Assembly (NCBI GenBank): GCA_030704615.1
Contig: CM060734.1
Location: 42,656,001 to 42,720,000 of the forward strand
From: Takakia lepidozioides
Taxonomy: Eukaryota; Plantae; Bryophyta
Length of the DNA: 64,000 nt
Reading direction: 5' to 3'
Shown here one piece after another: positions 15,901 through 51,275 of this stretch (positions are counted from its first letter, which is position 1; each line of letters begins with the position of its first letter). Position numbers and translations under genes: made by a program. The notes under the pieces were generated by a model that worked only from the letters and a program-made list of their open reading frames with translations, was not told the DNA's origin and did no database searches.

Positions 15901-16052
15901 CAATCATTTCGCAACTGGAGAAACTGGTGCTGCAATCTGTGAGAAATTCATACATCCACTCATGTGGTAATCAAGATAAACCAAGGACAGGATTGACATT
16001 GGGAGAAACGTCCACTGGACAGTCGAGGTTCATGAAAATCTAGAGCAGCCAT

Positions 16053-24200: not shown

Positions 24201-24370
24201 TATGATCATCTTCAAAAGATGATTGTAGTGCATAGCGACAGCAAGACATGTAGACTTCGAACGGTGCAATGACAAATGTGCACTACCTAAAAGTTGTCAC
24301 TCAGACCTCACTCCGTATAGTTGGAGGCCATATCATTGCACAGCCGACGAATTGATGTGAATTACACATT

Positions 24371-27300
24371 TCAAATCATGGTCATCCACATACACATTAC
24401 ATAGTTCATGCTACCATGTGTTGTATCCCGCTGCAAAAGAGTATCGACCTCGTTGAAACTCATAGTGGCCTGGTGAATGAAGTTGTCACGTTTGGGATCG
24501 CAAACCATCCTCCTCAAAAATATGAAATACAAATGTTTGCAGGGTATGAATTTACCTCTCTTGCCCAAACTGGTTGATAGCATATTCACAAAATCAGGAC
24601 ATGTGCAATTGGGGAAATTGGAAACCGTGATGTCGTAGGTCCTGTCATGAACAACAGATGTGGAAGTGATGATTGTGAATACCCGACCATATCCTGGATC
24701 GGGTACTTCCGTGGTGCTTCCGACACGAGCTTGGAGCATTCTTGCGGACTCCACTTTGCCAAAGTGTTCAGCGGTTGGAGGGAAACGCCGAACGAGCTTT
24801 CCATCTCGTTTGGTTGGCCACAAGTCAGGATTTGCCGGGGGACCCGGGAGGACGCAGAAGTAGTAGCACATGCATGGAGTTGGGGTTGTCTCGCAAGGGA
24901 AAAACCTGCCTCCTCCAGCATTTCAATCTCCTGAAAGCTGAGATGTGTTCCCACCTTCACGGGCCAAACGGTTGGAGGAGATGGCTTCATCACTACGGAA
25001 GGACGCACAGTTCCATGCACACATCTGGCACAATCATCTGCGCAGAACCAGAACTTGTGGTTCTTGGCTTCTGGTTGACCGTATGGACGCATCAAGCCCG
25101 TGAAAGTCAGGCAGGAGTTCGGGCACCACCTCTGGATATAGATGAAGTGCACTTCTCGAAATTAGTTGCCCTGATCGCTGTACATTTCACACGAGACCCG
25201 ACACTTGTGCGTTCTATGTGCCAAACGTGGTCGGGGCATGCGGACTCAAGCACATCAAGGGGGTTGTTTCTCTCCTGCACCATTTCAGTGGCACGGTTTG
25301 ATGCTGGAGCTTGCCGTCGTGTTGGAGGTTCCTCCACAATGGAGGTTCCGGACATGGAGCTGTCATGCAGGGGAACACGAGGCTTCGAGAAGTTATCACG
25401 GTCTGCCCTGTGGGAATCTGAATCCGAACCAGGTGGAGTGTTCAATTTCCTCTTACAGGAGCCGAATCTCTCCTCCCCTTCAAGATGTGGAACTCTAGAA
25501 ACAAGTGGCGTTCCCTGGGCATACATGCTCACCGCCCGTGCTATCTTGATTGGATCCCTAGATCTGTTTGCAGCACGCAACATCAACTCCCATTTGTCCG
25601 GACCCTTGCCACCAACCCCACCTCGTAAGAAATCACGGTATCGGGTTTGTTGTTGCAAGGCACGTATCAAATCATCTGTTGTTGCCACATACAAATCCCG
25701 ACCTCGTTTCCCAGACTGCTGCAACCATGCATTGTGCATAGTTTCTGCCAAATTGCAAGATGGCATGTCCGCCATTTCCTCAATGGACATGTTCTGCAAA
25801 GAGGATAACCACACTTCAGAATAGTGCACAGGAAACAACATAAAGAAAGCAATGAGTCAAAAATATGGAAAGCAAATGTATGAATAAAGCATGAAATAGA
25901 AGCCTCGTACCATTGTCATGGCTGCTCCCCACTGTCTATACCGGAAGTGCCAAAACGCCAGCCAATCTTCCAATGCTCTCATACTCTCAAGTGATGCAGC
26001 TCCAGAAGAGAACCACCGGCACGAATTGTCTGGAACAAAGTGTCCGCCTCCTTCATTGTTCTAGCATCTTTGTACTCTTTGCACAATTTACGGTGCTGAG
26101 TCTGCATCTCTGGTTTGATGTCCGACTTTGTATGTTTTTCCAGAGATTGTGTCCAATGGAATAGACATGTACGCTCTCTTCCTGGCATAGGCACTTTTGG
26201 GTCGCCCGATCCGAAGACAATACGAACAGCATTGAAATTTGCTTGAGCACTATCCGCCATGAAACCTGCGAAATTTGGAGATGGCAGCCCATGACACGTA
26301 TCAGGGAATTCCACATGAGCTTCTGGGATTCCGTATCCTCGGATTGCATGTCACAAACTGCAATTGTCATAACTCGTTGGTACACTGGATCGTAGACATG
26401 ACAAGCCATTGTCGTCCAATCCTTCACTCGTTTCACATGATCAAACATAAGAAAACAGTTCTGCAAGTCCCCAGTCTTCTGCATCCGCTTCACGAGGCTA
26501 ACCCCACTGCCCTCCCCAACAGTCGACATTTTGAAAAGAAAAACTTTGATGGCACCTTGACCTGGGAATACATTGTCCTGGATGTAATCGTACTTGCTCA
26601 CTCGTTTCAATTCCAAAATATTGTCTATGTAGCCTCTGATCCCAGAGCCCATTCTCAATGCATTGATCTGATGCCGAATGTTAGGTGAACTTAAAGTGGA
26701 GAAATGATCCATGACCATGTCCAATGCTGCACCGTCAAGTTTAGTCCCCACAGAATCTCCTTCACTCAAAATATGGCTTTCCAAGAAGGACTTGCTTGCG
26801 CCAAGAGCAATTGCAGATGTTGTTGCGGATGGGTTTCTCCCGAACTCCTGTTTGATCAACCTCGATACTGTCTCAACACTCTCCCTGTAATCCCCCTTCA
26901 AGACAGGATGGTTATGGAATCCAAAATGCACACAAGCTCTCGTCATTGTATTCAAACGGTGGACAACATAGTACATTCTTGCTCCGCAGAGCGCCAAGCA
27001 GGATGGCACAAGTTTGCAGAATTTGCAGATGAAAGTGTTTGCCGGTGGAGGGGCAGTCCCAGGCTGAAATGGATTTTCCGCCAGACCCTCCCATTCGCTT
27101 TGATTATGAACCCCAGACTGAAGAAAGTGTCTGCAATTCAAATTATCACACCTAAGGTGTCCATTGCAAACTGTCCTCCTGAAAACAAGCTTGTCATCAT
27201 TCTGAATATTGGATGTTTTTGTTCTGCACCACGGGTGCCCGTCGTGTTTCTTGTCCATTCCATGCATCATGATTGTTACACCTCCAACTCGCGGAGGAGG

Positions 27301-27912
27301 AGGCAGCTCGAATAGGATATCGCCATCAAAAGTCTCCGGCAAGAACTTCACAGGCACCTGCTTCAAAGATTCCCAATCAATTCCCCGCAACTCACTTTTG
27401 AATCCAGCCATTCCTCCCATCGCCCGCAATTTTGGAATGACACTACAAATCTCTTCTTCATCAGCTTCTGCAACCACAGTAGGAAGGACTGGATTTGGAA
27501 TTTCACTTATGTCATCATCGGAAGAATCCGAAAGCTCAACGATTGGAGTGGAGGAAGTCTGTTCTTTTTTCACCACCACCTCCATCTTGTCTTCAACGAC
27601 CGAAGCAGCAGTCCCGGGCGTCACATATGACCCAAGGGACTTTCGCCGAGGCTCTCCAAGTACTCTGTATCGACCAGGACGCACTCTCCACTGGCTGATA
27701 TGAGCCGTCTCATCACGGTTTTGGAAAGAATATTTCACCAACTTCCCTTTCAGATCGTAAACCTCTTTCTCCAAAAAGATGGAGCCATTCTGCAGCTGAA
27801 AACGGGTAGCCAAGACATGTTCCAGAACAATTGCAAATCCATTGTCAAGGACTTCCTGGGAGAACGGCACTGGTTTGTCGTCTGAGAAGAACTCCGCTTC
27901 AGAGGAAGCCAT
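24371..27912 (-). pseudogene. MULE transposase with GCM/WRKY-like N-terminal Zn domain and SWIM finger (frameshifted)
   Basis: WCRTKTSN...CNGHLRC...C..C...HFGFHNHP; LMFDHVKR (D1); GFMADSAQAN (D2); CLFHW (CxxH); CNLAETMH (E); CTCPDF...PCKHLYF (SWIM). Confidence 0.88.
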
Positions 27913-29130
27913 CTTCCTTCCTCGAGTATGTTTGTACCTTGCTATCGCAGATCTAGTGTAAATCGGTTTATTGCTGTCTCCAGAAAACAGTTGAAGAATG
28001 AGCAGAGAATATGGCGGAGGAAGCTCAGATAACGACTGTGCATATTCTGTTATTCATTCCAGATATGCAGCCGTCCATTTTAATTACTTTTCTTGTGGGC
28101 CCAGTGGTCAGAGTATCCCTAGGGGCAGTGTCGGCAACTGTTAAACCGTTAATCAGAACCTCATCAATAAACCCAATAACAAAGCCGACTTCCTGGAAGC
28201 ATGCCACAGGATCTGAGAATGGGATTGCAGATTAAGTAAATGTATCTATATACTACTACCAATGATCATGCGCACCTGGAAAGTTCCAAATGTGAAACGA
28301 ATGTGGGGTTTGGCTAACAAGGATGACCGTGTATGATATTCCAAAATTTGTCATCAAACTCTCGTTCATTTATATTTATTTGTTTAAGACTGCGCATCAA
28401 TTTCTGGGATTCGCTGTTCTTTTTAAATATTGAACCCGTTATAATAAAGAACACGCCGTTTTTCTTGGGCGGCACACGTCAGACATCCATAACTGAATAC
28501 GAACAGCTGTACACCAATTGCTGGCATGTGCACTAATAAGGAAACGACTATGTGTAATGGTCACGCGGGAGGGAATCCGATGCTTCTAGAGACACGCAAG
28601 AACGCAGGCAATCCCGCAAGAAATCGGGAGTCACTGCGTTTTTCTACTTTTCGCGCTTAGAGGGAGAGTGGTAGTCAAGCTGGAGAGGGTTCCTTCCAGA
28701 ATACGAAAGAGAAGAAAGTCTCTTTATTTTACTTCCCTTAGAGAGAGACGCAGAGCAAGAGAGAAAATGACGAGGCGTCGTTTGTTGGAGAACACAGGGC
28801 CAAGGCAGCAGGTGAACGTGGAGACTGATTCACAAGAGCAGACGGAGACTGAGGCAGCGGCTGCGACACAGTCGGCGATAAGAGTGCGCCAGCCTGTGGA
28901 GGCAGAGATGATTCGCAGGGACACTGAAGAAGGTGGAAGCACGCAGAACGCCGAACCTGGAGAAGGTCAAGAAACCCTTGCGCAGATAGAAACTCCAGCA
29001 GATGTGAGAGGGAAGAGGAAAGCTGCAGAAGGGGATCAAAAGGTGCCAGTAAGTTTTATCATATAGTCTGTCTGATTGCCTTTCAAGGAGTCCTTCCTCT
29101 TCCATTCTTTAGCACGAACTACTGAATCGC

Positions 29131-29447
29131 GAGCGTCGTTAACGCCATTCGATTCTCCTCATGAGATTTATGTACCTATGTGTTTGAAGAGAGAGTCTGC
29201 ACTTACTATTCTCCCTAAACTACACTGAATGTCGTTGCCGCCAATTAGTTGCACATGTATGTCATTACACAACACCGATCCGGCAGGTCGTTATCTTTTG
29301 TGATTGTCGTTAACGCCGTTCGCTATCGCTCTCGCTTTTGTTTTGAATACGGCAGTCTCGGCTTTGCATGTGTAGATTGTGCTGAATTCTTTCACACCAT
29401 TCATGGTGAGTTTCCTTGATACAGAGTGATGGTCGTTACCGCCATTC
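29131..29447. repeat. Four degenerate 20-bp palindromes (GAATGTCGTTNACGNCATTC type) in intron 1 of the cargo gene
   Basis: Copies start at 29131, 29227, 29302 and 29428. Confidence 0.75.
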
Positions 29448-30875
29448 ACTATTTGCAAATCACTCAGTCAGAACTGAATGGCATCGTGCAGAAAACTGTG
29501 AGGTCGAAGCCTACAGGATCAGAGGGGAAAGGATCTGGAGATGGGGACGAGTCCGCAAAAAGCTCAGAGAATACAGATGAAGCAGATGAATCCGAAGTGC
29601 ACTACCTTGACAAGGTGAAAGAACTCATGTCATTCCAGAAGGTAAACTCTCAGGAGATTATAAGGGACATGCTCGTATCTGGAGGGCGTCTGGACATACC
29701 CCTGTGCCGGATGATATCAATGCCTGTTGTGCGTCCACCTCTTTCCCATGACATAACAAAATTGGAGAGTGATTTTGTGCATGGATATAGACTTGGTGCA
29801 CAAGTTTTTTATGTGTCACTGACGGATATAAATGGGAAAAGCACATTAGTGTCTCCAGAGATCAGTGATAACTGGGATGAGTGCTGGAAAGATGCCAATG
29901 AGGAGTTCGAGCTGGGCCTCATGATGGGAAAGAACACCCAGCAATTCTGCAACCACATGTTCTACGTCTGGGACGGCAACCACCGATTGCTGGCATGGAT
30001 GGGATACATTCAGAAACACCATTCGAAAGACAAAGACAAGCATGTTGTTGTGGAGGCAATGGTTTTGGATCCAGGAAATGACATCGCTAGGCTTCTTACA
30101 GCTATGCACGACGTGAACAAGTAAGTCATCCAGGAGATTTCATCCCTCTGTAGTGTCTTGTTAATCCTCAAAAAACAGTGTTAAGGAATGCAATGTTTCC
30201 AATGTTTTTGCAGATCGACAGAGAAATCGCATGTGACAACAAGCTTGGTACACACACTATTCCGAATTCAGAAGATTGGTCTGATGAAGCTGGATGATTT
30301 TCGGACAGTACTACCACCCAATATCATCAAGAAGTGCGAAACAGGAAGAGCTGCAGCACTTGGTATTCTTTGACACGAGAGGCGTTTCTGGAGTACATGT
30401 ATGCGGTAAGCCCGAGTCTGTAATCTGTTTACTTTTCGAATACATGTTTGTAGTCCCTTCGGAGCTAATCACTACTTGAATGAATGCATCAAGAACTGGC
30501 AGAGGCAGCTGAGAAGGGAAAATCCGAATATTACCGCACTACACCAGAAGAACTAAGGACATCAAAGGGTGTGGAAGCTGCAATAAAGAAGGAGTTTGAA
30601 ATGCGAAGAACCAAATTGATGTCAGCCTTCGGAAAGCAGCTTAGAATAGTAGATCCTGGACTTGGTCCTGAGTTCCTTCAGCAGATCAAAACACACTATG
30701 ACAAGCATGTGCATCCGGAGATGCAGCAGGAGAAATTGCACCGGCTGGCCATATCGATGGTCGACCCACAAACAAAAATAAGGTGGCTGGAGATATGGAA
30801 CTCAGATCAAACAGTAAAGGACTTGAATCAGTTCCCAAAGAGCACCATACAGCCTGGCACAAAGGTGGAAGGAAT

Positions 30876-31950
30876 TGTCGCGCGGCTTTTACTCACCCAT
30901 CCCTTCGCTATTCAAGGCGGAAACTCCAAGATAGAAGAGTTGGAAATCTCTAAGTACTCAGCCCGCGCAGAACAATCAGTCATGACCTACAGCTAGTGTA
31001 TCATGGGGGTGTTTCCTATTTGTTTCCCTTTTGGTATTCATGTTAGCTATCTTACCCTTGATAATTAAGTATCAGTTTGCTTTATCAATCTATTGGATTC
31101 CATCAACTCATCCATTCATTTCACAGCTTCACTCATATCTCTCTACACAGTGTGATTGTATCGTAAAAGTATCCGATTATGATTTATCAGGTATCAGGCC
31201 GAAGCCATTGTGTCTCTAATCTACTCTACAATATCATTACAGCCTTGCATATATCAAGCATCTACTCATCATCTCTCTATCTTCACTTCCGTTCTTCATC
31301 TTTGCCCGATCCCCTCTCCTCCATCACCCAGAAGTCCTCCTCCGAATGATATCCCTCGATTCCCCGTTTTCCCCTTTATCTTCCTATCCGTGGTTCTAAC
31401 CGTTTCCCTCACTAACCGTCGTCTGTGAACTAACATGTTCCCTTCGCAGGTGTTGTTCCCCACAGTCGTTCCCTGTCCTACTCTTCGTTCCCTATGATCG
31501 TGACAGCTGTGTCAAGCTGTGACTGGCTGTGTGAAACTGTGACGGGCTGTGACTGGCTGTGCGACTGTGTTTGGCTGTGTCGGGCTGTGACTGGCTGTGT
31601 GGCTGTGCCGGGCTGTGTGGCTGTGACGGCTGTGTCGGCTGTGACGACTGTGTCTGCTGTGTCGGCTGTGTCTGCTGTGACGACTATGACGGGCTGTGTT
31701 GGCTGTGTCGGCTGTGTCTGCTGTGACGACTGTGATGGGCTGTGTTGGCTGTGTCGACTGTGTCTGCTGTGACGACTGTGACGGGCTGTGTTGGCTGTGT
31801 CGGCTGTGACGACTGTGACAGGCTGTGTAACCCCCCTCTACAGTGCGCTGCTGTCACCCCTAAGGCTCCTGTTGGTCTCAGTCTGTGCAAAAATTAAGGG
31901 TACCCTACAGATCCCGTATAAGTGTCTAAGTCCCCGACAGTCCTCTAATA
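30876..31950 (-). repeat. 3' LTR (1075 bp) with internal GGCTGTGAC-type minisatellite
   Basis: Near-identical to 41736-42774. Repeat tract at about 31500-31830. Confidence 0.95.
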
Positions 31951-32316
31951 TTACCCCTTCCCCCCAAAAAGCCGTGTCCTCACGGTTTACTGATTTCGAC
32001 TAGCAAACCTTTGTGAGTGAGCACCTTTTTGACGTTGAGAGTTTCGTGGCGGACTGTGTGTACGAGCCCGAGGTCTGTCTCTGGTTGACGGAGATGGTTG
32101 ATCAGTACCTGGATAAGTGAGGCCCTCTGGAGGCTGATATCGAGGTAACCTTTCCGGCATAGGAGACCCCCGTCGCTTCTTCTCTGCCATCTGAACTGCA
32201 TAGTCTTCTCCCATGTCAAAAGAATTCGGTGAAGAAACAGTTGTATCAGAATCCTCATCGCCTCTCAGGTGTTTTAATTTTCGAACTTTTTGTGGAATCA
32301 TCTGGGGCATACAATG

Positions 32317-35300
32317 CTATCCTACCATGTCTGGAAGTTTGTATTTTACAACTTGGTGTAACCGCTGAACAGCAAAATTGGTGTAGACACTGAGCTCCTT
32401 GTCTGTCCAGGTGAGTGGGGTACCAATTACTGGTGCCGCGTGCAAGTATTTCCATGCCACATGTCCCTTATAGAAAATGTCATCAATGCCGAATTTCTGT
32501 GTTGACAAATGGTTCCAGGCCGCTTGAAACCATGAATGAATTTGAGAATCATTTTGCATCATAACTTTTGGGTCATATAGGTACATATGAGGTGGCACCG
32601 AAGGTAATACCCAATGATCTCCACTGGAATAACTCAGAAAGCGTGTTTGCATCTTTTGTTGCTCAATGTGGTAACGTACCAGAAAACAAGCAGCGTAGTA
32701 TAACCCGCATCCCATGACAATACTTGCTACCTCCTTGGTCTTGGTATAAATGAGTCCATGTACAACCTGGAAAGCAATCAATTCCCTCAACATGGTACCT
32801 GCCTCGTGCCAGTATTGTGCAAAGTGATGATCTTCAATATGTCGATTGTTCGGAAGAACTTTAGTCCTAGTTGCCACTGGCAGCCAAATACGCATGATTT
32901 GGTAGTAATGTGCGAATGACTGCGGAGGACTAAATTCTTTCCAAGCCAAATCCAACATGATGGGAATTTGGTTGAAGGGCATAATCATAGCCCTACTGTA
33001 CTCCCTTGCAGCTAGAGTTTTAGGTGGGTTAAAAGCGGCATTGCCCCATACCTCCGGCTGTGGTGGCTGTGGTGTGTTTGTAGTAACCACAGGTTCAGCT
33101 ACTGGTACAGTGACTTGTTGTGGTGGTGGTGGTACTGGCTCTTGTATCATTGGCATCTCCTGCACCTCCTGTGAAGACTGAAAAGCCAAAGTTCTGGCTT
33201 GTAAATAAGAAGCCATTAGCTGTTCCTGAGGGATATAGACTCTTTTGTCGATGTTTGAAGTGAGGTCTTCCACTTGAGTCTGCAGTCCGTCTACATCCTC
33301 TTGTAACTCTGCTATCCTACTATAGACATTGTCTATAGTAGTTGTGGCAATGTTCTGCACCTGCAGCCTGAGCTCATTCATCTCGCTTTGGGTGAGCTTT
33401 CGTGGTGCTTTGCCCTCTACTGGGCCTTGTGCTAACCAGACCTGCATAAGGCTGTTATCCACCAAGTTGCTTGTGGTTCCCCTGAGAGTTTGCTCCTCTC
33501 TTAGCTTGTACAATTCCAACTGCTGTTGTAAAGCCTCCATGCGCTTCGCCTGAGGTTCAACCAATTGCGCATAAGCAGCAAGTAGATTATTGGCTTCCTT
33601 CCAAGCCTTGTTATTGACCGCGATTTCATTTCTATTGGCCATGATGGTTTGTTGCAACTCCACGATGTGCTTCTCTTGATCAGCTTCAATCTGCCTGTAT
33701 TGCTTGAAAGTATCTTCATTGCGACAGATTGTATTCTTCATATCGACAATGAGCTTCATTTGCTCAACATTCTCTTCTTCTGCCTTCGTACATTTTTCCG
33801 CTTGACTGTTTATTTCTTTTGTAGATTGGTCAAGCATAGTTGTGAATGTAGCACATTGTATCGCCATCCTGTCATGCACTGTCTGCAACTCCGTATATAG
33901 TGCATGCACTTCTTGCAACTTGCTTTCATGCTGCACCTGCATTTGGTATAGCTGTTGCTTATGTGCTTCGTGCAACTGGTCTTGCGCAAGGCCTGCCTCA
34001 ATCAATTGTTCCTTGGCCAATTGCAAAGCCATTTCTGTATTTCCCAAGTCCTGCTGCATCTTGAGAGTGACCTCTTCATCGACCTTGTTTGCACACTCAG
34101 TGGCTAGTCGAGCCTCAAACTCCTTCCTGAGTTCCTCTCTCAAGGCTGTCAATTGGGTAATTGGAACATGGGATTTGACATAAGTCCCCAACAAATTAAG
34201 TGTTCTGCCTATGGAACTCATCAGCATTGCCTGTTGAGGGTCATCATGGTGAGGTTGTTGCTGTTCCTCCTGATCTTCAACAGTGTGATGTCTCACGAAC
34301 CATTCAGGCCATTGTCCCACCGGATTTTCTTCCTGAACTACTTCATCTATCACCGGTGCTACAGTGTCATGACCTTCCGCCTGTGGTACCTCCGACACAA
34401 GTGTGTGTATTATATGCACCTCAGGATTTCCCTTGGGCAATTGTTGCACCTCTGGGATCTTTGTCTCCTTGACCAGACCAGAATATTCATAGAGAAGGTC
34501 CCCCTTCTCCATTTCTGCCACTATCTGTGCTGTAGTTGGAATATCTAACCCTTCTCTTTCCAAATCAATTATTTCTAGTTGAGCTGCATGGATAACTTGT
34601 GACCTTGTGACAAGTCGATCAGTTGGCTGTGATGGTTGTGATACATAAGTAACTTCCTCCTCCCTCTCTGAAGGTCCTGCTTCCAGTAATAGCATTTCTC
34701 TGTGCTGCTGTGCCCCTTCCTGGCCATGAGCTTGGGAAACATTATCATGCGGAATCCGTGAAGCCAGTGGATCCGCCACTACAGTCTTTCCTCGTCTCTG
34801 CCTCTTAGTCTCGGGTTGCCCTGCTAGTCCATCCTCACTGTGTGAAGAGCCTTGCTCTTCCATTGCAGTTGTTTCTGGCTCAAACACTCCCATTTCCTTT
34901 CTTTCTTGCGCATCAAGTATGCCAGAATCAAGGATTATTTGAGCAATGATTGGGCCAGACACTATGATAGGAGACTTTGCGGTAGTACCTTGTAATCTTT
35001 TCATCTCCTCTACCAGTGCATTGTACATTATGTCCGCCCATTGTACCTCTTGTCCCTTCAGGCCTTTGAGTATTTCCTACGTGAAGGATCTGCTCAAATA
35101 CTGTTGGTTCTGTTTCATGGCAATCAAAACGTTCAAGACCTGGCCTACCTCTTTTAGCCCTGGGTACACAGCCTTGGTACAAGCATAACCCTGAGTTTTA
35201 AAGAAACTCCCTTCTTGGAATAAGTCCCATATTTGCAGTCTTGCCCTGTGTTCCTCCACATGCACCTGACCTGCTGGCAATCGAAACAATTGTTGGAGGT

Positions 35301-35760
35301 ATAGGGGAGTAATCATCAATTCTACTCCCTTCACCGTTGTTGTTCCTGTCCTTGGCTCAAAGTTCTGCAAAAATTGTAACATGTACTGTCTATGGTGTAA
35401 TGTCCAATCTAGGCTTTGCAATCCTTGCAATCTCAGCTCCTCCAGTAACTGTATCGCCTGTGGGGTAGCAATTGTTTGTTTCTGCAGAATTGTGGTGCTC
35501 TTCACCCTGATTTCCTCCATTCCTCTCACCCTCTTCATTTTAGACTCACAGAATTGTTTTGGCTGTAACAACTGCAGGAATGCCTGTAGTGCACAAAGCA
35601 TAAACGTATGGTTGCCGCAGAAAGCTATGGGTAATTTCTTGTAAGCCTGCGGGGCTTGCAAGCATCGCTCAAGAGAAAAGCTCCGCTCTGTCCTTTCGTG
35701 TCTATGCCACTGCGTAAGTAATATTGCGAGCGTATAGTCTGTTAGTTCCTCCATAATTTC
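32317..35760 (-). CDS. Extra 3' ORF of the gypsy (about 1150 aa if the stop at 35077 is a mutation): plant-transposon-domain-like N-terminus plus long coiled coil
   Basis: ORFs 35077-36591 (3' part) and 32317-35028 are in the same frame. FLQNF...TTVKGVELMITP..LQQLFRLP motif; Q/E/L-rich heptads. Confidence 0.7.
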
Positions 35761-36229
35761 CAAGTTATAGCATTGATGGTCTGTCCCGTCGAGATGCCCG
35801 TTACTCAGAACGACGCCGCCTCTTGCACTCAATTTCCCTCCCTTTTCTCGATCCTTTCTCTGGTTTTCTATTGGCTGTATCCGCTGTGACTGGATTTTAG
35901 ATTTTATTTTCTTTAGTGGACTTTCCCTGTTGGATAGTCCACTAGGATCACACATGTGACAAGAATTCCGCTTTTCTGTACTTGCCGTTCGTTCCGTTTC
36001 CCTTTTTCCGTATTCATTAATGGGCTCGCCTTTCATCCCTTTTGACGGCCGTTCTTGTCCTCTTTCTTTTTGACACCTGTTCTTGCACTTCTTTCTCGGC
36101 TGTGTGTCGTGCCCTGACCTCCACGTGTCTATTTTTAAAGTAATTTCCGTTTTCTCTTCCGTCAGCCATTTTCCTGAAGTTATTATGCGTCCACTTGTCA
36201 CTGATTCTATGGATCGTGTGACTTTAGTA

Positions 36230-36410
36230 GGCTGTGTTGAGCTGTGACAGGCTGTGTCATACTGTGTTACGCTGTGATAGGCTGTGATGCACTGTGGTAA
36301 GCTGTGATAGGCTGTGACACGCTGTGGTAGGTTGTGATAGGCTGTGTTGCGCCGTGCTGGGCTGTGATAGGCTGTGCTTTGCCTTGATGGGCTGTGATAG
36401 GCTGTGTCAC
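36230..36410. repeat. About 30-bp tandem repeat (GCTGTGATAGGCTGTG core) related to the LTR minisatellite
   Basis: About six units visible between integrase and the extra ORF. Confidence 0.8.
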
Positions 36411-36606
36411 GTCTGTTTTGGCCGCCCTGGTCATATATGCTGGGCCTAGCGACAAGTGCTCCATACTCCGTTCGTAACACTGGTGCAGCCCGTGACTGCT
36501 CTTGCGGTTCAATATGCAAATCATGCTGCAAGGGTTTGTCATGGATACCACTGTACCCCTTCAACTTATTGGCATTAACTCTTCCCAGCATTTCTTTGTT
36601 AATGGT

Positions 36607-39257
36607 TTATAACATGGCGGTGTTGTTATCATACATCTTTTGTATGACATAAGGTCCTTTCCATGGTGATTTAAGCTTAGAAGCTTGAATCTTTCCTTTC
36701 TTCTGCAACCATAGAACCAAATCCCCCGTCTTAAAAGTCTTTAACTTGCCTTCATCAAACTGTTCCTTTCGCTTCATCTGAATTCTGGTCATATTATCAG
36801 CTGCATCAGCACGTACTTCTTCCACATGGTATAATTCATGTTTCCTGACCTTGATGGAGTCTTGCCATTCCATTCTTTTTCCCCACTCCGTTCTCATGGT
36901 AGGTAACAGGAATTCCACTGGAAGTAAGGCTTCCATACCATATACTAATTGGAATGGTGTATACTTAGTGGTCGGAACCATTTCAGAAATGGGGACTAGA
37001 CTTTGTTGGACCAATTAACCCACCATCCAAGAATACACGAAACAGGTACATAATTACAGCCACTGATTATACTACAAAGTGGGTGGAAGCTAAAGCTTTG
37101 AGGGACAACACAGCCAAGTCCACAGCAAGGTTCATGTACGAGAACATACTTACACGATTTGGCTGTCCCTTAGAATTTATCAGTGATCAGGGAAGTCACT
37201 TCATGAATGAGACCATTGAGTTGTTGACTAAAGAGTTTATGATTGTGCATAGAAAGAGTACAACATATTACCCACAGGGTAATGGGCAGGCAGAGGCTAC
37301 CAACAAAATACTATGTACTATCTTGGCTAAGATAGTCAATGCAAACAGAACGGATTGGGATACAAAGCTGCTGACAGCTTTGTGGTCATACAGGACTTCA
37401 TATAAAGGGCATTGTAGGATGCAAGGCCATCCTTCCCGATCTCTGCAAAGGTCCTAGCCTCTGACATTCATCACACTTCTGACAATACTCGTGTACATCT
37501 TTGAACAAAGTAGGCCACCAGTATCCTGCGAGTAGTATCTTTCTACTGGTAGTCTCTTCTCCAAAATGACCTCCAGCCACTCCTTTATGAACTTCCGCCA
37601 AAACTTTATTTACTTCATGGTGGTACAAGCATCGTTTTAGTACTCCATCAGGTCCTAACTTATACATTCTGCTTCCTACCATAGTATAAGGTAAAGCTTT
37701 GATAGCGATTCTCTTCCTCTGCTCCTTACCATAACTAGGTGGGCACTGACCATGAGCAAGGTAGTATCTGATTGGCCACTGCCAATCTAACCAGTCATCT
37801 GCACTTCCTTGCACCTCCACTGCAAAGAGACTTGCATCTGGTAATTGATCATCTATTCCTGTGGCTGGTTCTCCTGTTGACAATCGTGACAAATGATCCG
37901 CCACAAGATGCAGTCTCCCAGGCTTGTAAACAACCTCGAACTCAAACTCATGCAAGATTATCAACCATCCTGCTATTCTTCCGCTTATCAGAGGTTTGTT
38001 TACCAGGTATATCAGAGCCTGGTGATCCACATAGAACATAAACTTCTTGCCCAACAGGTAATGCCTGAATTTCTTCACTGCATAGATCATTGCCAATGCT
38101 TCTCTTTCCGTTGTGCTATAGTTCCTCTCAGCACTGTTCATCAACCGGCTAGCATAGTACACAAGTGAATCTATATTCCCTGTAACATTCTGGGCTAACA
38201 CCGCTCCCAACGCTTCTCCTGATGCATCGCAGTGAACATGGAATACTACATGCCAGTGAGGGTTAATCAGCACAGGTGTAGTTGTTACTGACAGTGTAAG
38301 TTCCTCAAATGCCTGTTGACATTCAGCTGTCCAGACAAACACTGCATCTTTCTTCAGTAGTTTGCTCAATGGTGCTGCTATTTGTGCATACCTTTTGACA
38401 AATCTCCTGTAATAACTGGTTTGCCCAAGGAATCTCCGTAGACTTTTAACATTCACTGGTGGTGGAGAGGCTTTAATGGACTCTGTCTTTCTGGGATCCA
38501 CAAGGAGTCCCTTCTTACACACAATGTGTCCCAGAAGCACCCCTGAGTTCACACAGAAAGTACACTTCTCTGGATTCAGGCCCAGACCTCTCATCCTGCA
38601 TCTGGCCAAACATAACTCCAATTTATGCAAGTGCTCACTCTTAGAGCTGTACACACTGAAATCATCCAAGAATACCTGCATGAAATCATCCAGATACTCA
38701 TGAAAAGATTCACTTATCACTCTCTGAAAGGTCGCTGGTGCATTACAAAGTCCAAAGGGCATGACTTTGTATGCATAAGCCCCCCAGTCTGTGATGAAAG
38801 CTGTTTTCCCTTGGTCTTCTTCTGCCACTTGCACTTGATTATAACCACTGAAGCCATCCATGAATGAGTATATCTCATGGCCTGCCACAGTGTCTAATAC
38901 TGCTTCTGTGAATGGCAAAGGGAAAGGATCTTTCTTCGTACAAGCATTCAGCTTCTTATAGTTCACACATACTCTTAGTTTGCCATTCTTCTTGGGAACT
39001 ATAACAATGGGCGACAACCAAGTTGTATACTCTATTGGGTATATAAACTTAGCCTCAGCCAACTTCTGTATCTCTTCTCCAACCTTCTGTGCGTAGTTGG
39101 GATTCATTCTATACCTCGCCTGCTTGATTGGTACTGACCCTGGTTCCAGTTCAATCTTATGCTGACAGACTTCAGGTGGTATCCCTTTTAGATCCTCATA
39201 GCTCCAAGCAAATACATCTCTGTATTTGATCAACAAGCTTTTAGCTTTTTCAGCCAC
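36607..39257 (-). pseudogene. Gypsy RT-RNase H-integrase, with the integrase core inverted (about 36972-37407)
   Basis: KLRVCVNY, MDGFSGYNQV, VMPFGLCNAPATFQR, FLDD, CDAS, ERNYSTTERE, HHCC zinc finger. The core KWGLDFVGP...SDQGSHF...QAEATNK is on the plus strand. GPY motif on the minus strand. Confidence 0.93.
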
Positions 39258-41046
39258 GGACGTCCCAATAATAAGGAGTAAGCCTCCATGACTTCATCCA
39301 TTTTTAATACAGTTACTGTGATCATAAAGATCATTTTCTGTATCTGTATCTTAACTTCTCTTATTAATCCCAATGGCTGTACACTTCTTTGATCTGCCAT
39401 TGTTACTGTAAATGGGGCTGGTTTCATGTTACTTAGACCAAGCTTCTTCCTTAATTGGTCTGTCATGATATTTACTCCAGAACCACCATCTATCAGTACA
39501 TCAGTTAGTTCTGTGCTTCCAATTCTCAATTGGATTACTGGCATAGAATCATCAAAGTCCATGACTGTTTCTCGCCCTTCCGGCTTCACATTATAACTGG
39601 TCACCTTGCTGTTCAGGTCTGTGTTTCCTGTCTCTTGGGCAATTCGATTGATTGCTTGATACAGCCTGTGCCTACAATAAGGTGCCACAGCTAATAACTG
39701 TCCAATGGTAATTTCTGCTTTGGTCTTGCATATTACTTCAGCCAAAGTCTCTTCATTACTTTGCATGTCTGCATCTTCTTTTTTCTCTCTCCTGAGCATT
39801 CCCAATTGCTCAATTCTGTTCGCAGTTTCAAATGCCTCCTCCACTGTATTATGGGGTAACATATCCACTTTCTTTTGCAACTCTGGTCTTAGTCCACTCA
39901 CAAACCAAGTCTTCTGTAAACCGGGTGCTGGTACTGCAGCCAGCTTTTTCATCATCAATTCCATCTTCTCCATATACTCTTCAACAGTTTCATGCTTCTT
40001 CTGCTTCAGCTGTTGTAAACTTCCATACACTTCATCCTCAGTTTTACTTGTCCTGAACCTATTTCGAAATGCTGTATTCAAGCCATTCCAGGTTAGGAAA
40101 TGATTATCAGGGAATCTTGCATACCATTCACTTGCTTTCTTGATAAGTGAACAAGGAAACAATCTCATCTTGGCATCATCGCCATTCTCATTGTTCACTA
40201 TACACATGTGCTCAAATTGGCTAATGTGTACATCGGGATCCCTTTTTCCTGAATATATTGGAAAGGGTGGTTTTGCCCGTGTTGGTTGTAACGCCATCTG
40301 CGGCCCTACCTTCTGCCCACTGACAGGTGCTGGCACCCTTGCTGGTGCTGGTCCTTCTGGACCTGTTGTTTTTGTGGTGGATCTTCCACCAAGTGGTGGC
40401 CCTTGAGCACTCCCTGCTTCTGGCCCCACGATATTCACAGTATTCCCAGCTTCAGTTGCACTACTTCCCACACTCCCTGTCCCCCCAGAGCCAGATCCAG
40501 GCAGCCCGCCTGATCCCCTGAGCCGACACCTTCGTTGGCCTGTGATCCAAGTGCTCCACTTGATCCAGGTCCAACGGGTTGGGATGTCCTGGTTGTAGTC
40601 TCAACCTCAGCTGTTGGGTCTACTTCTTCATATTCTTCCTCTTCCAATTTCTTCTCTCTGTTTTCATCCTCCAAGTTCTGCCCTTGGGTTTCTTCTTCAC
40701 TCATGTAACTCAACTGTAATGGTGTTGGAGAGTCTGAACTCTCCGTTGGCTCTGCCACATCCTCTTCTCCTTCTTCACCTTCTGCTTCAGAAACTGGAGT
40801 TCCTGCTTTTGGTGTTCCATGCCAACTCTTATCAAAGATTTCTGTCAAATCTTTTATCCAATGATGTACCTCAGATCTTTCACCTCGTGATTGATCTTCT
40901 TCCTGTACCAATTCCCTTAATCTTTCTTGCAAAGAAACAGAAGGAGTGGCATCCAACTCTAGTTCTTCCGGTATAGGTGATGTACTCTTTGATCTTAATG
41001 GTGTGAGAGTCCAGATGATTCCCCTATGTCTATTCCTCTCTCCCAA
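39230..41046 (-). CDS. Gypsy gag-protease (frameshifted)
   Basis: YSGKRDPDVHI...RLFPCSL...FVSGLRPEL; VLIDGGSGVNIM; LLLGRPWL. Confidence 0.88.
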
Positions 41047-41147
41047 AGATATGGATAATTAGCTTTCAGATAGCTTTCTCTTTTTGCTGAATATCTCTGG
41101 CGTCTAGCTTCTCTTTCATCACTCATGTCCCATGTCTTTCATTTCTT

Positions 41148-41843
41148 TTAATGTGGCAATAACCAAAACTCTCTTCTGTAATATCTCTCGTATATGCCTG
41201 GGTTTCTTTCAAGCTTCAATGCACCCTTGGCTATACTTGAAGTCTCCGTTACCATATAACCATATGGCAAACAAGTCTGAAAAGCTGTTCTTGGTGTGAG
41301 TTTGATCCACAAAATATCCTTTGGAATCCAATTCTTTACCAGTACAAGCTCTTCATGCATATGAGTATAAACATTCACCTTTCTTTCTTCCCAGCCTTCA
41401 AACTCTACTCGTTTAATGGATAGCAATGCTATCACATAAACCAATGTTGGTAACCAACGTGCTCTTCCTCTACAGGCTACCTGATAAATCTTTATCACTC
41501 CTTTCTCCAGACCCCATTCTGGATCAGCATCATGCACTCGCTTAAGAATATTTTCTTTACAACCGTCTGGCAATTCCAAGAACCTTTGAAAGAATTGTTT
41601 GGACAATCTTTCTTCCTTCGTTCCACAGGGAATTTGATTCACTTCAAATTCTTTAATGGTCCAACCACCATGATCCCACCAGATGCCTGTCACATCTGGT
41701 TGTTCATGACTCAGTTCCCCAATATGGTCGCCAAATGTCGCGCGGCTTTTACTCACCCATCCCTTCGCTATTCGAGGCGGAAACTCCAAGATAGAAGAGT
41801 TGGAAATCTCTAAGTACTCAGCCCGCGCAGAACAATCAGTCAT
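41148..41843 (-). CDS. Extra 5' ORF of the gypsy, running from the LTR across the PBS (unknown function)
   Basis: 231-codon open frame upstream of gag. No recognised domain. Confidence 0.4.
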   Translation of the reverse strand: MTDCSARAEYLEISNSSILEFPPRIAKGWVSKSRATFGDHIGELSHEQPDVTGIWWDHGGWTIKEFEVNQIPCGTKEERLSKQFFQRFLELPDGCKENILKRVHDADPEWGLEKGVIKIYQVACRGRARWLPTLVYVIALLSIKRVEFEGWEERKVNVYTHMHEELVLVKNWIPKDILWIKLTPRTAFQTCLPYGYMVTETSSIAKGALKLERNPGIYERYYRREFWLLPH

Positions 41844-42774
41844 GACCTACAGCTAGTGTATCATGGGGGTGTTTCCTATTTGTTTCCCTTTTGGTATTCA
41901 TGTTAGCTATCTTACCCTTGATAATTAAGTATCAGTTTGCTTTATCAATCTATTGGATTCCATCAACTCATCCATTCATTTCACAGCTTCACTTAGATCT
42001 CTCTACACAGTGTGATTGTATCGTAAAAGTATCCGATTATGATTTATCAGGTATCAGGCCGAAGCCATTGTGTCTCTAATCTACTCTACAATATCATTAC
42101 AGCCTTGCATATATCAAGCATCTACTCATCATCTCTCTATCTTCACTTCCGTTCTTCATCTTTGCCCGATCCCCTCTCCTCCATCACCCAGAAGTCCTCC
42201 TCCGAATGATATCCCTCGATTCCCTGTTTTCCCCTTTATCTTCCTATCCGTGGTTCTAACCGTTTCCCTCACTAACCGTCGTCTGTGAACTAACATGTTC
42301 CCTTCGCAGGTGTTGTTCCCTACAGTCGTTTCCTGTCCTACTCTTCGTTCCCTATGATCGTGACAGCTGTGTCAAGCTGTGACTGGCTGTGTGAAACTGT
42401 GACGGGCTGTGACTGGCTGTGCGACTGTGTTTGGCTGTGTCGGGCTGTGACTGGCTGTGTGGCTGTGACGGCTGTGTCGGCTGTGACGACTGTGTCTGCT
42501 GTGTCGGCTGTGTCTGCTGTGACGACTGTGACGGGCTGTGTTGGCTGTGTCGGCCGTGTCTGCTGTGACGACTGTGACGGGCTGTGTTGGCTGTGATGAC
42601 TGTGACGAGCTGTGTTGGCTGTGTCGGCTGTGACGACTGTGACAGGCTGTGTAACCCCCCTCTACAGTGCGCTGCTGTCACCCCTAAGGCTCCTGTTGGT
42701 CTCAGTCTGTGCAAAAATTAAGGGTACCCTACAGATCCCGTATAAGTGTCTAAGTCCCCGACAGTCCTCTAACA
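41736..42774 (-). repeat. 5' LTR (1039 bp)
   Basis: TG...CA ends. Matches the 3' LTR apart from a few substitutions and minisatellite copy number. Confidence 0.95.
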
Positions 42775-43223
42775 GGAATCAGTGATTTGGTCTTTGATAA
42801 CTGGCTCCACAAGGCTACATTTTGGAGTCAGGTGTGTATTCAAACATGCTGTTTCTTCTCTTCAAGTATGTGATGTGTATCTTTTTTGCAATTCTGACAA
42901 ATATACTATTTGCAGCTCGAAAAGCGCGCCATCATTGTGCTGGATCAGACTTTGAAGGACCTGAACATTGCGATTGTTTCCCCTCCCCAAATGTCATTGG
43001 AGGCATACATAAGGAAGTGGAGAGGTCTCACGTGGAGATACTGTTTTTTCCGGGAGTTCTCCAAAGATGGTAACATTTTACGGTCCAACGACTTTGACAG
43101 TCAGGTTGGAGGAGAGTGGGCCATGATGCGAGTTGTGTACAGGTGCAATGTCATACTTGAAACTCTACTGTTTTTTTTGGAAAAAATGTGGCTTCATATG
43201 GATTGCAATCTTAGATCCAGATT

Positions 43224-43945
43224 GAATGTCGTTGACGACATTCACTTCTTTGTCTAAGTCATTCTTAAGCGAGTATATGAATTCACCTGGTTAGGATCTA
43301 AGGATGCAATTATATTGTCCCTGATTAGAATTGATAATGTCCTTGAATGGCGTTGACGACATTCACATACGGAGTTGTTGAGAGGTCCTCAGAGTTATTT
43401 AAATTTTTGTAATGTCCATAGAGGTTACAGTGAGGGTTCCTCACTTCATTTTGCTGAATGTCAATGCAGACATTCAGTTGTTCTGCATTGTTTTTGCCTC
43501 TTGCGATGAATGTGGAGGCTTGATAAGCTCTGTTTTAAGAAATCCAAAGTGAATGTCGTTGACGACATTCACAGCTGTGTCTGTATTATTCAACAGCGAC
43601 AAATTCAATTTACATGGATTGGGGAGCTAAGTAATTGGTTTCTTTTTTGTATTTTTGTGAATGGCGTTGACGCCATTCACATACAGTGATGTTGTGAGGT
43701 CCTCAGTGATAGGTTCGTTATGAATGTGCATTGAGTTTGCCTGGAGGGTTCCTTACTCAATTTTTTGATTTCCATCCTGTGATTTTGCTTCATTTAAGTA
43801 ATAATTTGGCTTCATTCTTGAATGTCGTTGACGACATTCACTTCTATGTCTGTGTCATTTCTAAACAATTATTTGCATTCACCTGGATTATGATGTATTT
43901 ACAATGTCATTGAATGGAATGTTCTGAATGGCGTTGACGACATTC
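43224..43945. repeat. Array of seven 20-bp palindromes GAATG(T/G)CGTTGACG(A/C)CATTC in a cargo-gene intron
   Basis: Copies start at 43224, 43345, 43456, 43551, 43659, 43820 and 43926. Spacing 95-161 bp. Confidence 0.92.
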
Positions 43946-46900
43946 ATATCTGGAGCAGTAGTGTGGTCCTGAAAGGTCCTTGGAGCAGTTGTCAGAGCCA
44001 TTTCAATCTATGTTTTATTCTTTCTGTTCTACTTGCATCTTACTCACTGAGCGCTTTTGTGGGTTGGGATTTATCTCCTTTTTTCAGGTACACGAAATAT
44101 GTACTTATGGAAGGAAATCACCTGAGCGGAATTCCCGACTATCTTGACATGTGGTCGGACCCTGCAAACGATCCAACCATGTATACTGCAGGGATATTGA
44201 AGGACTGGAGTCCTTCTCACTTCAGAGACTGTGGGTGGTACCTTGACTGCCCACCTGAGCACACGACCTTTCAAGAACAGCATATGAAATTCTTGAACAA
44301 TAACGCTGAGATGCTGGCGCCTTTGACTGACGAAGAGTATCAACGAAACATAGCAACCTTGGCTGCCAAGGAGCCTGATGCTCAGGGAACGCCGCAGAAG
44401 GGAAAGAAGGCGGGCCGCAAACCAAAAGACAAGGCTGTTGATGTCATAGCCATCTCACCAGCAAAGCCAAAGGACAAAGACAAGTCCAAAGAGAAGGAAA
44501 AGGACAAGGGGAAGGAGAATGAAAAGGAGATGGAGAGTGGGCAGGACTTTACTGCTGGAAGATATACCCGCACTCTTCAGTGCGTGTTCGATGCCAAGCC
44601 ACACCCTTCCCGTTCTGATTCAGCAGGAGAGATGAAAATTGTTAATGAGGGTTGGCTTTCGATGATGCAGAGTCGAAAGAGAGGATACACTGGGGTGCCA
44701 TCCCCTACCTGGGACAATATAATCTCATTCCTCAATCTGGTGAGAATTCCAGTTTCTTTTCTTTTTCTCTGAAAGTTTCGTTGGCAGTATTTCAGTCTCG
44801 TTCTTTGAAAACATTCTTGCCATCGTTCTTATAAAAAACATGTCTGTTGCAGGTGAGCACAGGTCCCACCTTCGTGTGCGGTGTGCAGAAAACTTATGCG
44901 GCCGACATTGTCATTCTCGACATCCCGGATGGCCAGGCTGTGCCAGAAGTTCTTCCAAAGGGCAAGACGCCAGGCTGGAACAAATTCGAGGACAACTACT
45001 GGAGTTGGGTGTTCGGGTTCTGTAACAAATTCCTCTCTGATGCAGGGACACTTCTGCTTTTTCAGTCATGTGACAATGATAGTCGTTGGGCATTGGCATC
45101 ATACCTCAAGTCTTCAGGGTTTGAAGTTTTGCGCACATGGAATTGTGTGAACAGCCTCTACCTTGTGAAAGGGGGTTTCCCTGGTCAGCTGGTATGCCGT
45201 CTCCCTTCTGCTTGTGCTTTGATCATGAGTTTCAATTTTCTCTGCAGCTCCACTCTAGTAGAAAGTTTTATGATCGACACCGATCATCAACGATTCATGA
45301 TTTTTTTGTGTCAGAGTTCTGAATAGCCGATGTACACACTTCCACTATAGATTGTGTTTACCACACTAACCTGCTATCTTTGCCAGACGAGGATGTTCGA
45401 GGCGATCTGCCTGCGGAGGATTCGCACATCAAAGACACCATCCTCCATCCGCAGCTTTGAGATTTCTGACCAGGGTTGTTTCGTCAACCCCCCCTATGAG
45501 CCCCATGTCGATGACATTTTGTACAACTTCATGCAGTCCAGTCAGACTCTGAAGAGACCAGATGGCACTCCCTGGAGAGGTGCAAAGGAAAAGTCACCAG
45601 CATTCATGCAAATACTGCTGGAGTCATGCAGCCACCGCTCTGCACGGGTGGTCGATCTTTCTGTGTCCACATGTTCGTTTTTTCCCTTCCGAATTGGTTT
45701 CCTTTCAACAGTTTCATCTGCTTAAATCCCCCCTCCAAACTGTTCATGTTCTCCTGTCTGGTGCAGGAGCAACTTACCACGCATGCAAGGCAGGCGGAAG
45801 AAGCCTTTTTGGCATGGAGGGTGATTCTGACCTCTAAAACACCGTGCTCCTCCCCCTTTTGTCTGGCTCCACTTCAGGCACACAGACTGATCGGATTCAA
45901 ATTCGAAATGATGACGATCCCGAAGATAAGCAGGTCGACAACGACTTTTCATGTGAGTAAGTGCTAAACCCTCTTTGGGAGTCATACTCAATTTCTCGAT
46001 AACATCAAAGTTACAGTAATAACTTTTTCAGGCTGTCTTTCAGGAAAGGCAGCGGTGGATCTTCAGGAGATACAGTCATTTCTGGCGAGTCTGTTTTCGA
46101 CAGCCCCCTTTCCAATTTTCTGCTTCCTGTTTATGCCGAAGCAATGGCACTTCACGCGGCTGAGTCCCTATCCCCTGACTTTTTAGTGGCCAGCCGTAGG
46201 TGTATCCAGCGTGGATCCGGTGTTCTAAAATACTTAGACTTAGATGCAGAGGAAGAGGGGATACATTGTACTGACTCTGAGTCAGACTGAACTGTATTCT
46301 TTTACTATTTTCATTTTCATATTATCTGGAAAACGTTGAATCCCCTTCCTCCACCGTAGTTGTTCCTTTAGAACAAATAATAATCACAGAATCAACTTTC
46401 GTTTAAATTGCTATATGTATGAATCCATCTCACAAACCTTCCTGACTCTTCTCATATCCATTGTGCATTCATCTACACTGTATTCATGCGTGCTCCATTC
46501 ATGAAAGCTTCCTTTGTACAACATCCATTGTACATTCATCCTCTGTACTCTTTAATCCACCCCACAAACCTTCCACACTCATTTCATATACTTTGTGCAT
46601 TCGTCAAAAGATTTGGTCATGCATCTTCCTGTCATGAATTTTTGTCATTGCTCAACATCCATTATACATTCATCCATTTTACTCTTATCCATCCGTCATT
46701 CATCCATCTACATACATTTTTCACACTCATCCATCTGTTTATCATCCAACTGTACATTCATCCATCCTTTAATCAATGCCTTTTATTATGTCGTCCAGCT
46801 TGTTTCCGCGGTAAAGGGTGCCAATCCGCGGGAATACACTCCACTTCTTTCTGGGCGCGTGGTGACTCGGCCTTCACGTGTGATGACGTGGACTGAGCCC

Positions 46901-47345
46901 CGTGACGTGGCATTTGCGCAAGGTGACGTGGCGTGAGCGCAGTTGCGCTCACGCGCTCACGTGACCAGGCTCACGCCGAGGCATCCCTGAAAGCATACCA
47001 CACTGCCATTGGAGCGATTCAAAGATGAAAGTTACATGTCACCTAAATATAACGTCCGAATCCACACAACACCAACTTCCCACTTTGAACCTCTCACTTG
47101 CTTCTTTTCTCTCACGCACCTCTTTGGACATCCTGCACCTCTCTGGACAACGTGTACCTTTTTGCCTGTCCTGCACCACTCTACCCATAGGGTACTTCTG
47201 AAGCAGCCTCTGAGTCTCTCCCTGCTTCCTTAGTCTCAGGTGTCAACTGCACATTTCTTACGTAGGATAGTATGATACTCAATTTTTTGTGTACTCTCCA
47301 TGTGCACCAGCTAAACTTGCTTTTGTTTGTCTAAAGTTACTCCCA

Positions 47346-50300: not shown

Positions 50301-51275
50301 GTGGAAGTCCAATCTTGATGGGACTCCATATCTCCCTGAAGGAGAACCAGATGCCGTTCCAAGAAGTCCGATATGGGGAGTCGGGGTCGACTCCTCAGAA
50401 AAACAATCATTCATAAAAAATGGTATTAAGAAATACAGAGATTTTTGGACCAAAGGAATGTTGCTTGTCGATCATTACCGGGGTGTGATGGAACAATATG
50501 ACCAATACTGGGGAAATATTCTCGCTGAACTTGATAAGCCAATGCAGGACATTCCGGATCGTATTCAGCTTCTTGAGGGATTTTGGCCGAAAACAAATTG
50601 GTCCTCAAACCATCGGAGGGATGGGATCCAACCACAAATACTGGAAGATATGGAAGATGAGGATGAAGTTCCATAACCTTACTGTGGCCCTAGGTGTGAG
50701 CGTCCAAGGATACCCTTGAATCCGTTCAAGGATATTGAGAAAGGGTTTTTTATGCTCGTTCGCCCTCATGACCCAACGACGTGCCCGGTCTGGATGGGAA
50801 TGGCAATTTCAGATGTCATCCGAGAAAGGGAAGATCCTAATTTTAAGAAAGTGAAGGTGGAGTGGTGGAGACCGAGAAAGGAGGTAACCCCTCAGACTTT
50901 GAGAGGTACAGGGACTGTTGGTCAAAAGTTTGGGAGTACAACCCATCAGATCCTGTTCAATGGATCCACGTGAACAATGTCGTGTGGAAAATGCCGCCAT
51001 GAAAAAATACGACAAGAAATAGCACCAAGACAATTACAGCGGTGGAAGCAGTGAAGGCGCGCGAATTTGGAGCTTGCTAACCTTTAGCCAGATACCTGAA
51101 GGTTTCCTTCTTGCAAACCATTTTCCATCCACGGACTAAATGTTGAGGTTATTTCCGGTCTTTCATTTTAAGATATAAAAATTTATTTACGCTTCTTTCC
51201 CTTCGTGTTTGCTTTGGGTGATCCTTTCTGTCTTCTTTTTCTGTCGCAATGAACCTCGAGTGGGCAGTGGACGTT
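47346..51275. repeat. Dispersed 24-bp palindrome AACCTCCACTG-NN-CAGTGGAGGTT, right arm of the Sola-like element
   Basis: Copies start at 47346 (partial), 47471, 47738, 49151 and 51252. Confidence 0.9.
47771..51085 (+). pseudogene. Sola-like (DUF7869-type) DDD transposase with stops and frameshifts
   Basis: FAKCIEC...H; LCIIHDKMD; LYLQIDNSSKDNKN; FLMVGHTHEDIDGFFS. N-terminal VASG...CHG...LPY...IGTPVVW domain. C-terminal PVWMG...KVEWWRP domain. Confidence 0.8.

Follow-up and report, generated by a model that had tools for sequence, protein, structure and literature searches.

The window, a stretch of 64,000 nucleotides of Takakia lepidozioides DNA, holds a Mutator-like DNA transposon that carries two genes, a transposase gene and an accessory gene (Table 1). 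The accessory gene is cargo of the transposon, a context missing from the first-pass annotation of this DNA. The element is flanked on both sides by a target site duplication (TSD) of 10-11 bp, (G)AAAGCATACC; Mutator-like elements have TSDs of 9-11 bp, and those of Muta1 are 8-9 bp. Its terminal inverted repeats (TIRs) are short and imperfect, with 15/21 positions matching ungapped and a 32-bp inverted match at 87.5%. DDE/CxxH-like motifs (FDH, MAD..CLFH and NLAETMHN) were found by eye in the transposase, for which a SWIM finger stayed sub-threshold (E 0.002, 18 bits vs a cut-off of 19.6) and no MULE Pfam match was obtained. The subterminal GCGTGAGCG repeats are likely transposase sites and are distinct from the palindrome described below, of which the element ends have no copy. 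The element family is multi-copy: 9211 run X1 contigs fell on 2 kb of the element, 8076 of them at a level of at least 95%. The nested Ty3-type retrotransposon is a recent insertion. Its LTRs begin and end in TG..CA, differ by 11 mismatches in 1076 aligned bases and contain a minisatellite each, and it has a long extra ORF (32317-35076, minus strand).

Table 1. Features of the Mutator-like element and its accessory gene in the window
Feature	Position	Strand	Details
Mutator-like DNA transposon	23789..46989	.	About 11.3 kb minus the nested retroelement; TSD and TIRs
Left subterminal GCGTGAGCG repeats	23802..23894	.	5 of the window's 7
Transposase gene	24371..28053	-	Divergent from accessory gene; frameshifted near 26300
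Accessory gene	28768..46290	+	ParB/Srx-fold domain, predicted helical middle, amino-methyltransferase-like C-terminus
Four degenerate palindromes	29131..29447	.	Starts 29131, 29227, 29302, 29428; predicted intron 1
Exon 2, ParB/Srx-fold domain	29470..30121	+	GNHRLLA (GxxRxxA); structure model and fold matches
Nested Ty3-type LTR retrotransposon	30876..42774	-	TSD GGAAT (5 bp); splits exon 4
Intron 5, holds the array	43143..44087	+	945 bp, GT..AG; skipped by one run X8 contig
Seven-palindrome array	43224..43945	.	Starts 43224, 43345, 43456, 43551, 43659, 43820, 43926
Exons 7-8, N6/N4 methyltransferase-like domain	44853..45671	+	Non-canonical motif DIPD; homologue similarity
Right subterminal GCGTGAGCG repeats	46931..46954	.	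2 of the window's 7

The Mutator-like element is itself nested in an outer element whose ends, at 12242-12272 and 53970-54000, are TIR-like and whose ORFs include one with DUF7869 and others of the NIF-phosphatase type. All 11 copies of a second palindrome, AACCTCCACTG-NN-CAGTGGAGGTT, where 0 are expected (12438-21536 and 47471-51275), belong to the outer element, and the Mutator-like element has none. A ParB profile has no match in the outer element, and the second palindrome may be another element-specific site system with another reader. Near the outer element's right end, CCCTAAA-like words stand in tandem and dispersed repeats with a 213-bp period (51426-53425). Sequence matching the outer element's terminus (53908-53999) at 88% recurs at 4954-5045, beside an ORF at 4481-4783, and is probably the end of a related element. 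Elsewhere in the window, an ORF at 55513-55827 contains DPLFFAHH, which we take to be a polyphenol-oxidase-like copper site, and a copia-like gag fragment lies in a long inverted duplication at 829-3071 (arms 873-1456 / 2447-3032, 90-94%).

Intron 5 of the accessory gene contains seven palindromes of 20-22 bp in which the half-sites TGAATGTCG and TGAATGGCG flank a 4-bp centre; the 22-bp site in the window is TGAATGKCG-N4-CGMCATTCA. A scan of the window for GAATGKCGTTGACGMCATTC gave exact matches at six of the seven array starts, the exception being the copy at 43456, whose arms are perfect but whose centre is AATGCA, and at up to three mismatches it gave 17 strand-matches against 0.02 expected (0/100 shuffles). 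The first-pass annotation had placed the array in an intron of the ParB-domain gene, which agrees with the GT..AG ends of intron 5 and with the run X8 contig that skips it, the RNA status of X8 being a guess. It had given the copies as about 100-120 bp apart, which suits five of the six start spacings (121, 111, 95, 108 and 106 bp) and not the sixth (161 bp, between the copies at 43659 and 43820). The higher-order units that it had put at about three are real, there being three diverged A-B-(C) units, of 327 and 269 bp, and its four degenerate copies in intron 1 were located and are weaker than those of intron 5. Its claim that the copy at 43659 has symmetric changes in both arms was wrong, the left-arm G being common to all three B copies and the right-arm A>C alone being private. 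All 11 window sites lie within the accessory gene's own introns and 0 near the transposase gene. A lone TCG-N4-CGA palindrome with TTATGA arms was also seen at 45268-45289, in a predicted intron between the methyltransferase-like exons.

The accessory gene of the window is broken, with exon 3 frameshifted and exon 4 interrupted by the LTR insertion; its exon ends are predicted, except at intron 5. That the encoded protein is ParB-like, as first annotated, is backed by the structure model of exon 2 (pLDDT 94.9), for which the best 11 of 13 VIA rows were ParB/Srx-type chains. The top match was KorB (Z 7.9, rmsd 2.6, 90 aligned), tied with PadC (7.5), and pNOB8 ParB followed at 6.5; VIA Z values under 8 are middling, and the top rows were all of one family. 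The best Foldseek E was 0.0086. The modelling thus supports a ParB/Srx fold for exon 2. GxxRxxA is the nucleotide-binding motif of ParB (PMC11229316), and its residues are well represented in the filled rows of alignment A3 (G in 73/85, R in 65/82 and A in 65/82). Two glutamates are needed for CTP hydrolysis by B. subtilis ParB (PMC8494293). The CTPase glutamates (GE78RR, E111NLQR) are absent here, with N at the E78 position in 84/85 A3 rows and MHDVN or LQRMN replacing ENLQR in the accessory protein family. A helix-turn-helix (HTH) was not found in the accessory protein, the full-length model of the fern homologue P0169 having a pLDDT of only 40.8, and hhalign against 10 bacterial ParB-labelled proteins (at least one mis-picked, L110) gave nothing significant, even for exon 2. 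An Atlas search with P0169 110-450 had a best score of 0.81, which is a lead only. PDB sequence searches with A3, P0169, A7, A8 and the transposase yielded no relevant match.

The methyltransferase-like assignment comes from homologues. Residues 570-810 of P0169 scored 0.93, with PF01555 in 26/30 matches, and exon 8 of the metagenome relative L006 gave E 0.0057 against PF01555, below cut-off; the window exons alone had no PF01555 match, and no Pfam family was found for the accessory exons. The catalytic motif IV of amino-methyltransferases is (D/N/S)PP(Y/F/W). Here it takes the form D-[IVLY]-P-[DEFGRS], namely DIPD in the window and DYPE, DIPE, DVPS, DVPR, DLPF or DVPF, with NVPG also seen, and this non-canonical motif means that the methyltransferase-like domain may be inactive. 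The domain is kept from ferns to metagenome relatives. In all, 538 homologous representatives pass E 0.001, and 6/10 that were looked up are from Adiantum ferns; accessory relatives were not found in viral contigs, nor exon 8 relatives in prokaryotic genomes. An alignment of ferns and fragments (A5) was scattered and was left out.

Within the array, the palindromes are conserved against diverged spacers. Pairwise identity across the three repeat units is 118/120 in the motif vs 353/614 in the spacer, three-way invariant columns number 39/40 vs 85/203, and 0/20,000 column permutations yielded two such conserved windows. The first-pass observation that the palindromes stay nearly invariant despite containing CpGs is borne out, since the 140 motif bases contain 12 CpGs and the 806 spacer bases contain 6. 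A and B palindromes are 90-95% identical, their 40-bp flanks only 17-35%, and a fixed difference between the A and B classes is retained. Among family copies (run X1, positions 43200-43970), 20 substitutions and 2 indels at a frequency of at least 5% included 0 in the motifs, which make up 140/771 bases. The motif-versus-spacer comparison that had been suggested for family copies thus goes in the expected direction (0/22 variants in motifs), but it is weak, with P 0.012 if the variants are independent and 0.074 when linked ones are pooled, which leaves 13 clusters. Among the 40 of 133 variants listed, 16 are in intron 5, with 0/16 in a motif. An eighth palindrome, lacking in the window copy, is present at 43768 in one X5 contig, and one contig jumps over 267 bp from one A copy to another.

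A metagenome scan confirmed 225 relatives, of which the best 80 (34-45% identity) were used and fell into 46 clusters at 90%. The window motif itself, at up to two mismatches, was found 0 times among these best 80 of 225, and its exact form occurred as 1 single site in viral contigs and 23 single sites in prokaryotic genomes, with no array. A sequence-blind palindrome scan of the same relatives gave 4-17 copies in 10/46 clusters, where the shuffle maximum was 2. A TCG-N4-CGA-like core was present in 10/10 array-bearing clusters, with lineage-specific arms: ACCCTC (L005, L020), AAGGTC/TACCTC (L030), AGGCTC/ACCCTC (L028), AGCAT (L056), CAACTT (L046, L051, L078), GTACTT (L061) and CTTCTT (L068). 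A scan for the core, designed after the array cores had been seen, found 40 sites in 17/46 clusters with the 4-bp spacer and 0-3 sites with spacers of 0-3 or 5-8, and 0 core sites in 78,920 bases of far flanks. None of 100 array copies overlapped an exon match. In some lineages the arrays lie upstream of exon 2, in others they follow exon 4a, 5 or 6, and these differing positions suggest repeated amplification. In the pairs L005/L020 (78% aa), L005/L037 (71%) and L046/L078 (52%), upstream DNA is alike only in short stretches around the motif. Arm identity in six relative arrays was 0.77-1.0 vs 0.41-0.70 for aligned flanks, the picking of copies biasing the arms upward. Arm classes, hand-assigned for 23/47 rows, required 7 changes, the fewest possible for 8 states (shuffles 9-16); such agreement with the tree is expected from co-inheritance and thus indicates inheritance, not co-evolution. 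L002 and L045 have the same arms despite 36% protein identity.

The CpGs of the core are preserved in copies with an open exon 2 (20/22, 9/10, 14/14 and 30/30) and have decayed, mostly to TG/CA, in those whose exon 2 has 2-8 stops (5/24, 5/34, 3/12, 4/14 and 1/14), a comparison confounded with clade. In L028, the half-site ACCCTCTCG is kept in 19/23 copies with the stem broken by 78 mismatches, and L030 likewise has 42. Core and spacing are constant, the centre is free to vary and asymmetry is tolerated, features that argue for two half-sites in double-stranded DNA and not for an RNA stem. Arrays of at least four copies were absent from 36/46 clusters among the best 80 of 225 relatives, many contigs being only 1-2.5 kb, and five clusters had 3-copy palindromes that failed the core test. 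The first-pass annotation had held that absence of the motif from intact relatives would count against its reading. The exact motif is in no relative, and L006 (1-4830), with a complete, stop-free gene and short introns, has no palindrome, which makes it a good negative control as well as a model for the exon structure; ten clusters have arrays with arms of their own. Palindromes of three to seven copies without the core were observed upstream of exon 2 in L065, L073, L067, L075 and L057. In L065 and L073 full deamination of CG cores could account for them; those of L067, L075 and L057 look different. A Pfam scan of 46 flanking ORFs of long relative loci found no DNA transposase, and the window transposase matches only L064 and L065 among the relative loci.

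The earlier proposal that selection preserves the sites is thus supported within the array, weakly among family copies and strongly across distant relatives. The sequence comparisons indicate that the intron-5 palindromes are a real, selected feature, and the palindromes are very probably protein sites selected in double-stranded DNA. Our preferred reading, to which we give a probability of roughly 0.55, is that the palindromes bind the element's own ParB-like/methyltransferase-like protein and that this would protect the element from host silencing. The accessory ParB-like protein is the probable binder, as the simplest candidate for sites that sit in its own gene, and the transposase is disfavoured as reader because the element ends carry a different repeat. 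By analogy with VANC, keeping cognate copies active is the likely purpose, and we put anti-silencing or self-marking at somewhat better than even odds. The ParB-like protein would load as a dimer at the palindromes, each subunit reading one 9-bp half-site through constant core contacts and arm contacts that vary by lineage, and tandem amplification would multiply the sites. Binding, possibly followed by spreading of the protein as a nucleotide-closed clamp, would bring the methyltransferase-like domain to the element, where it would mark it or shield its CpGs, and this protection would keep cognate element copies active. A more elaborate version is tentative and rather doubtful: in it, transposons of land plants would operate a loading system of bacterial style in the nucleus, namely a ParB-derived clamp that recognizes its sites lineage-specifically, loads at intronic TCG-N4-CGA palindromes and spreads on its own element, with an altered amino-methyltransferase that marks or shields against 5mC silencing, and with arms and protein changing together as orthogonal 22-bp pairs.

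The main rival to the anti-silencing purpose is autorepression, in which the same binder would occupy its own introns to repress its gene in the manner of KorB, or to sense copy number, while its methyltransferase-like domain would be a catalytically dead reader or scaffold. The confinement of the window sites to the accessory gene's introns, away from the transposase gene, fits this, as do the best fold match, the repressor KorB (though tied with PadC), and, for a dead domain, the non-canonical motif IV. We consider it unlikely, given that ferns and metagenome relatives alike retain the methyltransferase-like domain and that the CpGs of the core persist in open copies but are lost from dead ones; VANC sites, too, cluster in a VANC intron, yet act element-wide (PMC5735166). 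Still less probable is a reader other than the ParB-like protein, either the transposase or a host factor. Cognate copies can be activated by a Mutator transposase on its own account (bioRxiv 10.64898/2026.08.24.746577), and one host protein could suit a core common to all lineages. Against the transposase, the termini have their own repeat, with 7/7 copies at the ends. Arrays accompany ParB cargo under Plavaka transposases too, the arms change by lineage and core sites are absent from far flanks.

There is a slight chance that the palindromes are under no functional selection and are kept in a decaying satellite by self-templated repair or gene conversion. The arrays are indeed tandem amplifications, the 267 bp between A copies are bypassed in one contig, and the family-level variant test is weak, but A and B palindromes stay 90-95% identical between unrelated flanks with a fixed class difference, and repair would explain neither a single core and spacing common to the lineages nor the asymmetric sites kept in L028 and L030. 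Least credible of all are RNA hairpins in the pre-mRNA acting as a splicing or small-RNA signal: the window sites are all in predicted transcribed DNA and shuffled sequences fold less well than the intron (z -6.6), as expected with any palindrome, but 99 window pairs depart by 12 mismatches vs 4 G-U, the half-sites of L028 and L030 persist with broken stems, and no Rfam match came near its gathering score (one at 20.6 bits vs 85).

The preferred reading can be set beside several known systems. VANC of Arabidopsis has been demonstrated to bind and to cause demethylation (PMC5735166). VANDAL elements resemble the present one in being Mutator-type, in encoding an accessory protein and in having family-specific motifs tandemly amplified in introns and other non-coding parts; VANC motifs are 8-9 bp and non-palindromic (YAGTATTAY, AGTTGTMC) (PMC5735166). 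The accessory protein is set apart from VANC by its ParB/Srx fold and methyltransferase-like domain, and the Pfam and fold searches gave no hint of homology to VANC. By analogy, the element most likely works like VANC with a ParB-type reader. The ParB-parS, Noc-NBS and KorB-OB systems share with it the ParB/Srx fold, GxxRxxA and clustered palindromic sites (PMC11229316, PMC8494293). They differ in that the parS consensus is another sequence, of 16 bp against 22 bp here (PMC11229316), and in that ParA is absent here, by a Pfam scan of 26 window ORFs, the catalytic glutamates are missing, as in PadC, and no HTH was found. The present system is not parABS, and the first-pass term parS-like stands as an analogy only. 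A segregation role is not expected in an integrated element.

In the red alga Bostrychia, PAG3 of a Plavaka (EnSpm) element is a ParB-like cargo whose adjacent inverted-repeat arrays were proposed as binding sites (bioRxiv 10.1101/2025.02.11.637652). It is like the present gene in being transposon cargo with a ParB-like N-terminus and tandem inverted-repeat arrays beside it, and differs in its Plavaka transposase, its 2OG-oxygenase C-terminus and the placing of the methylase in a separate gene; in the available text its arrays adjoin the gene, are not intronic and come without a motif or selection test. The accessory gene of Sola1-1_Ec32, a Sola element of the brown alga Ectocarpus, encodes a fusion of a ParB-like domain and an N4C/N6A methyltransferase for which a role in binding and modifying the element that carries it has been proposed, and lies, as here, on the strand opposite the transposase; the string "palindrom" occurs 0 times in the main text (PMC12477816). 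Unlike that methyltransferase, the one in the window has a non-canonical motif IV. Dam methylases fused to ParB-HTH were described in chlorophytes and chytrids (Iyer et al. 2015; PMC4738411), and the available text of bioRxiv 10.64898/2026.05.21.726589 does not mention ParB. Our literature search found no report of a land-plant ParB cargo gene with palindromes. ParB cargo with inverted-repeat arrays (red algae) and ParB-methyltransferase cargo (brown algae) have thus already been proposed; what is added here is the shared core, the changing arms and the selection tests.

How transposons escape silencing beyond VANC is a largely open question, and the ParB cargo of algal transposons has so far only been proposed to bind its own element. 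At the present locus the candidate sites are known exactly, the core stays constant while the arms change, and several proteins can be paired with their sites, so that cognate versus non-cognate binding, nucleotide dependence and any 6mA/4mC mark are directly testable. If the preferred reading is true, a ParB-type loading mechanism would operate on plant chromatin, and the protein/site pairs could serve as programmable epigenetic targeting parts.
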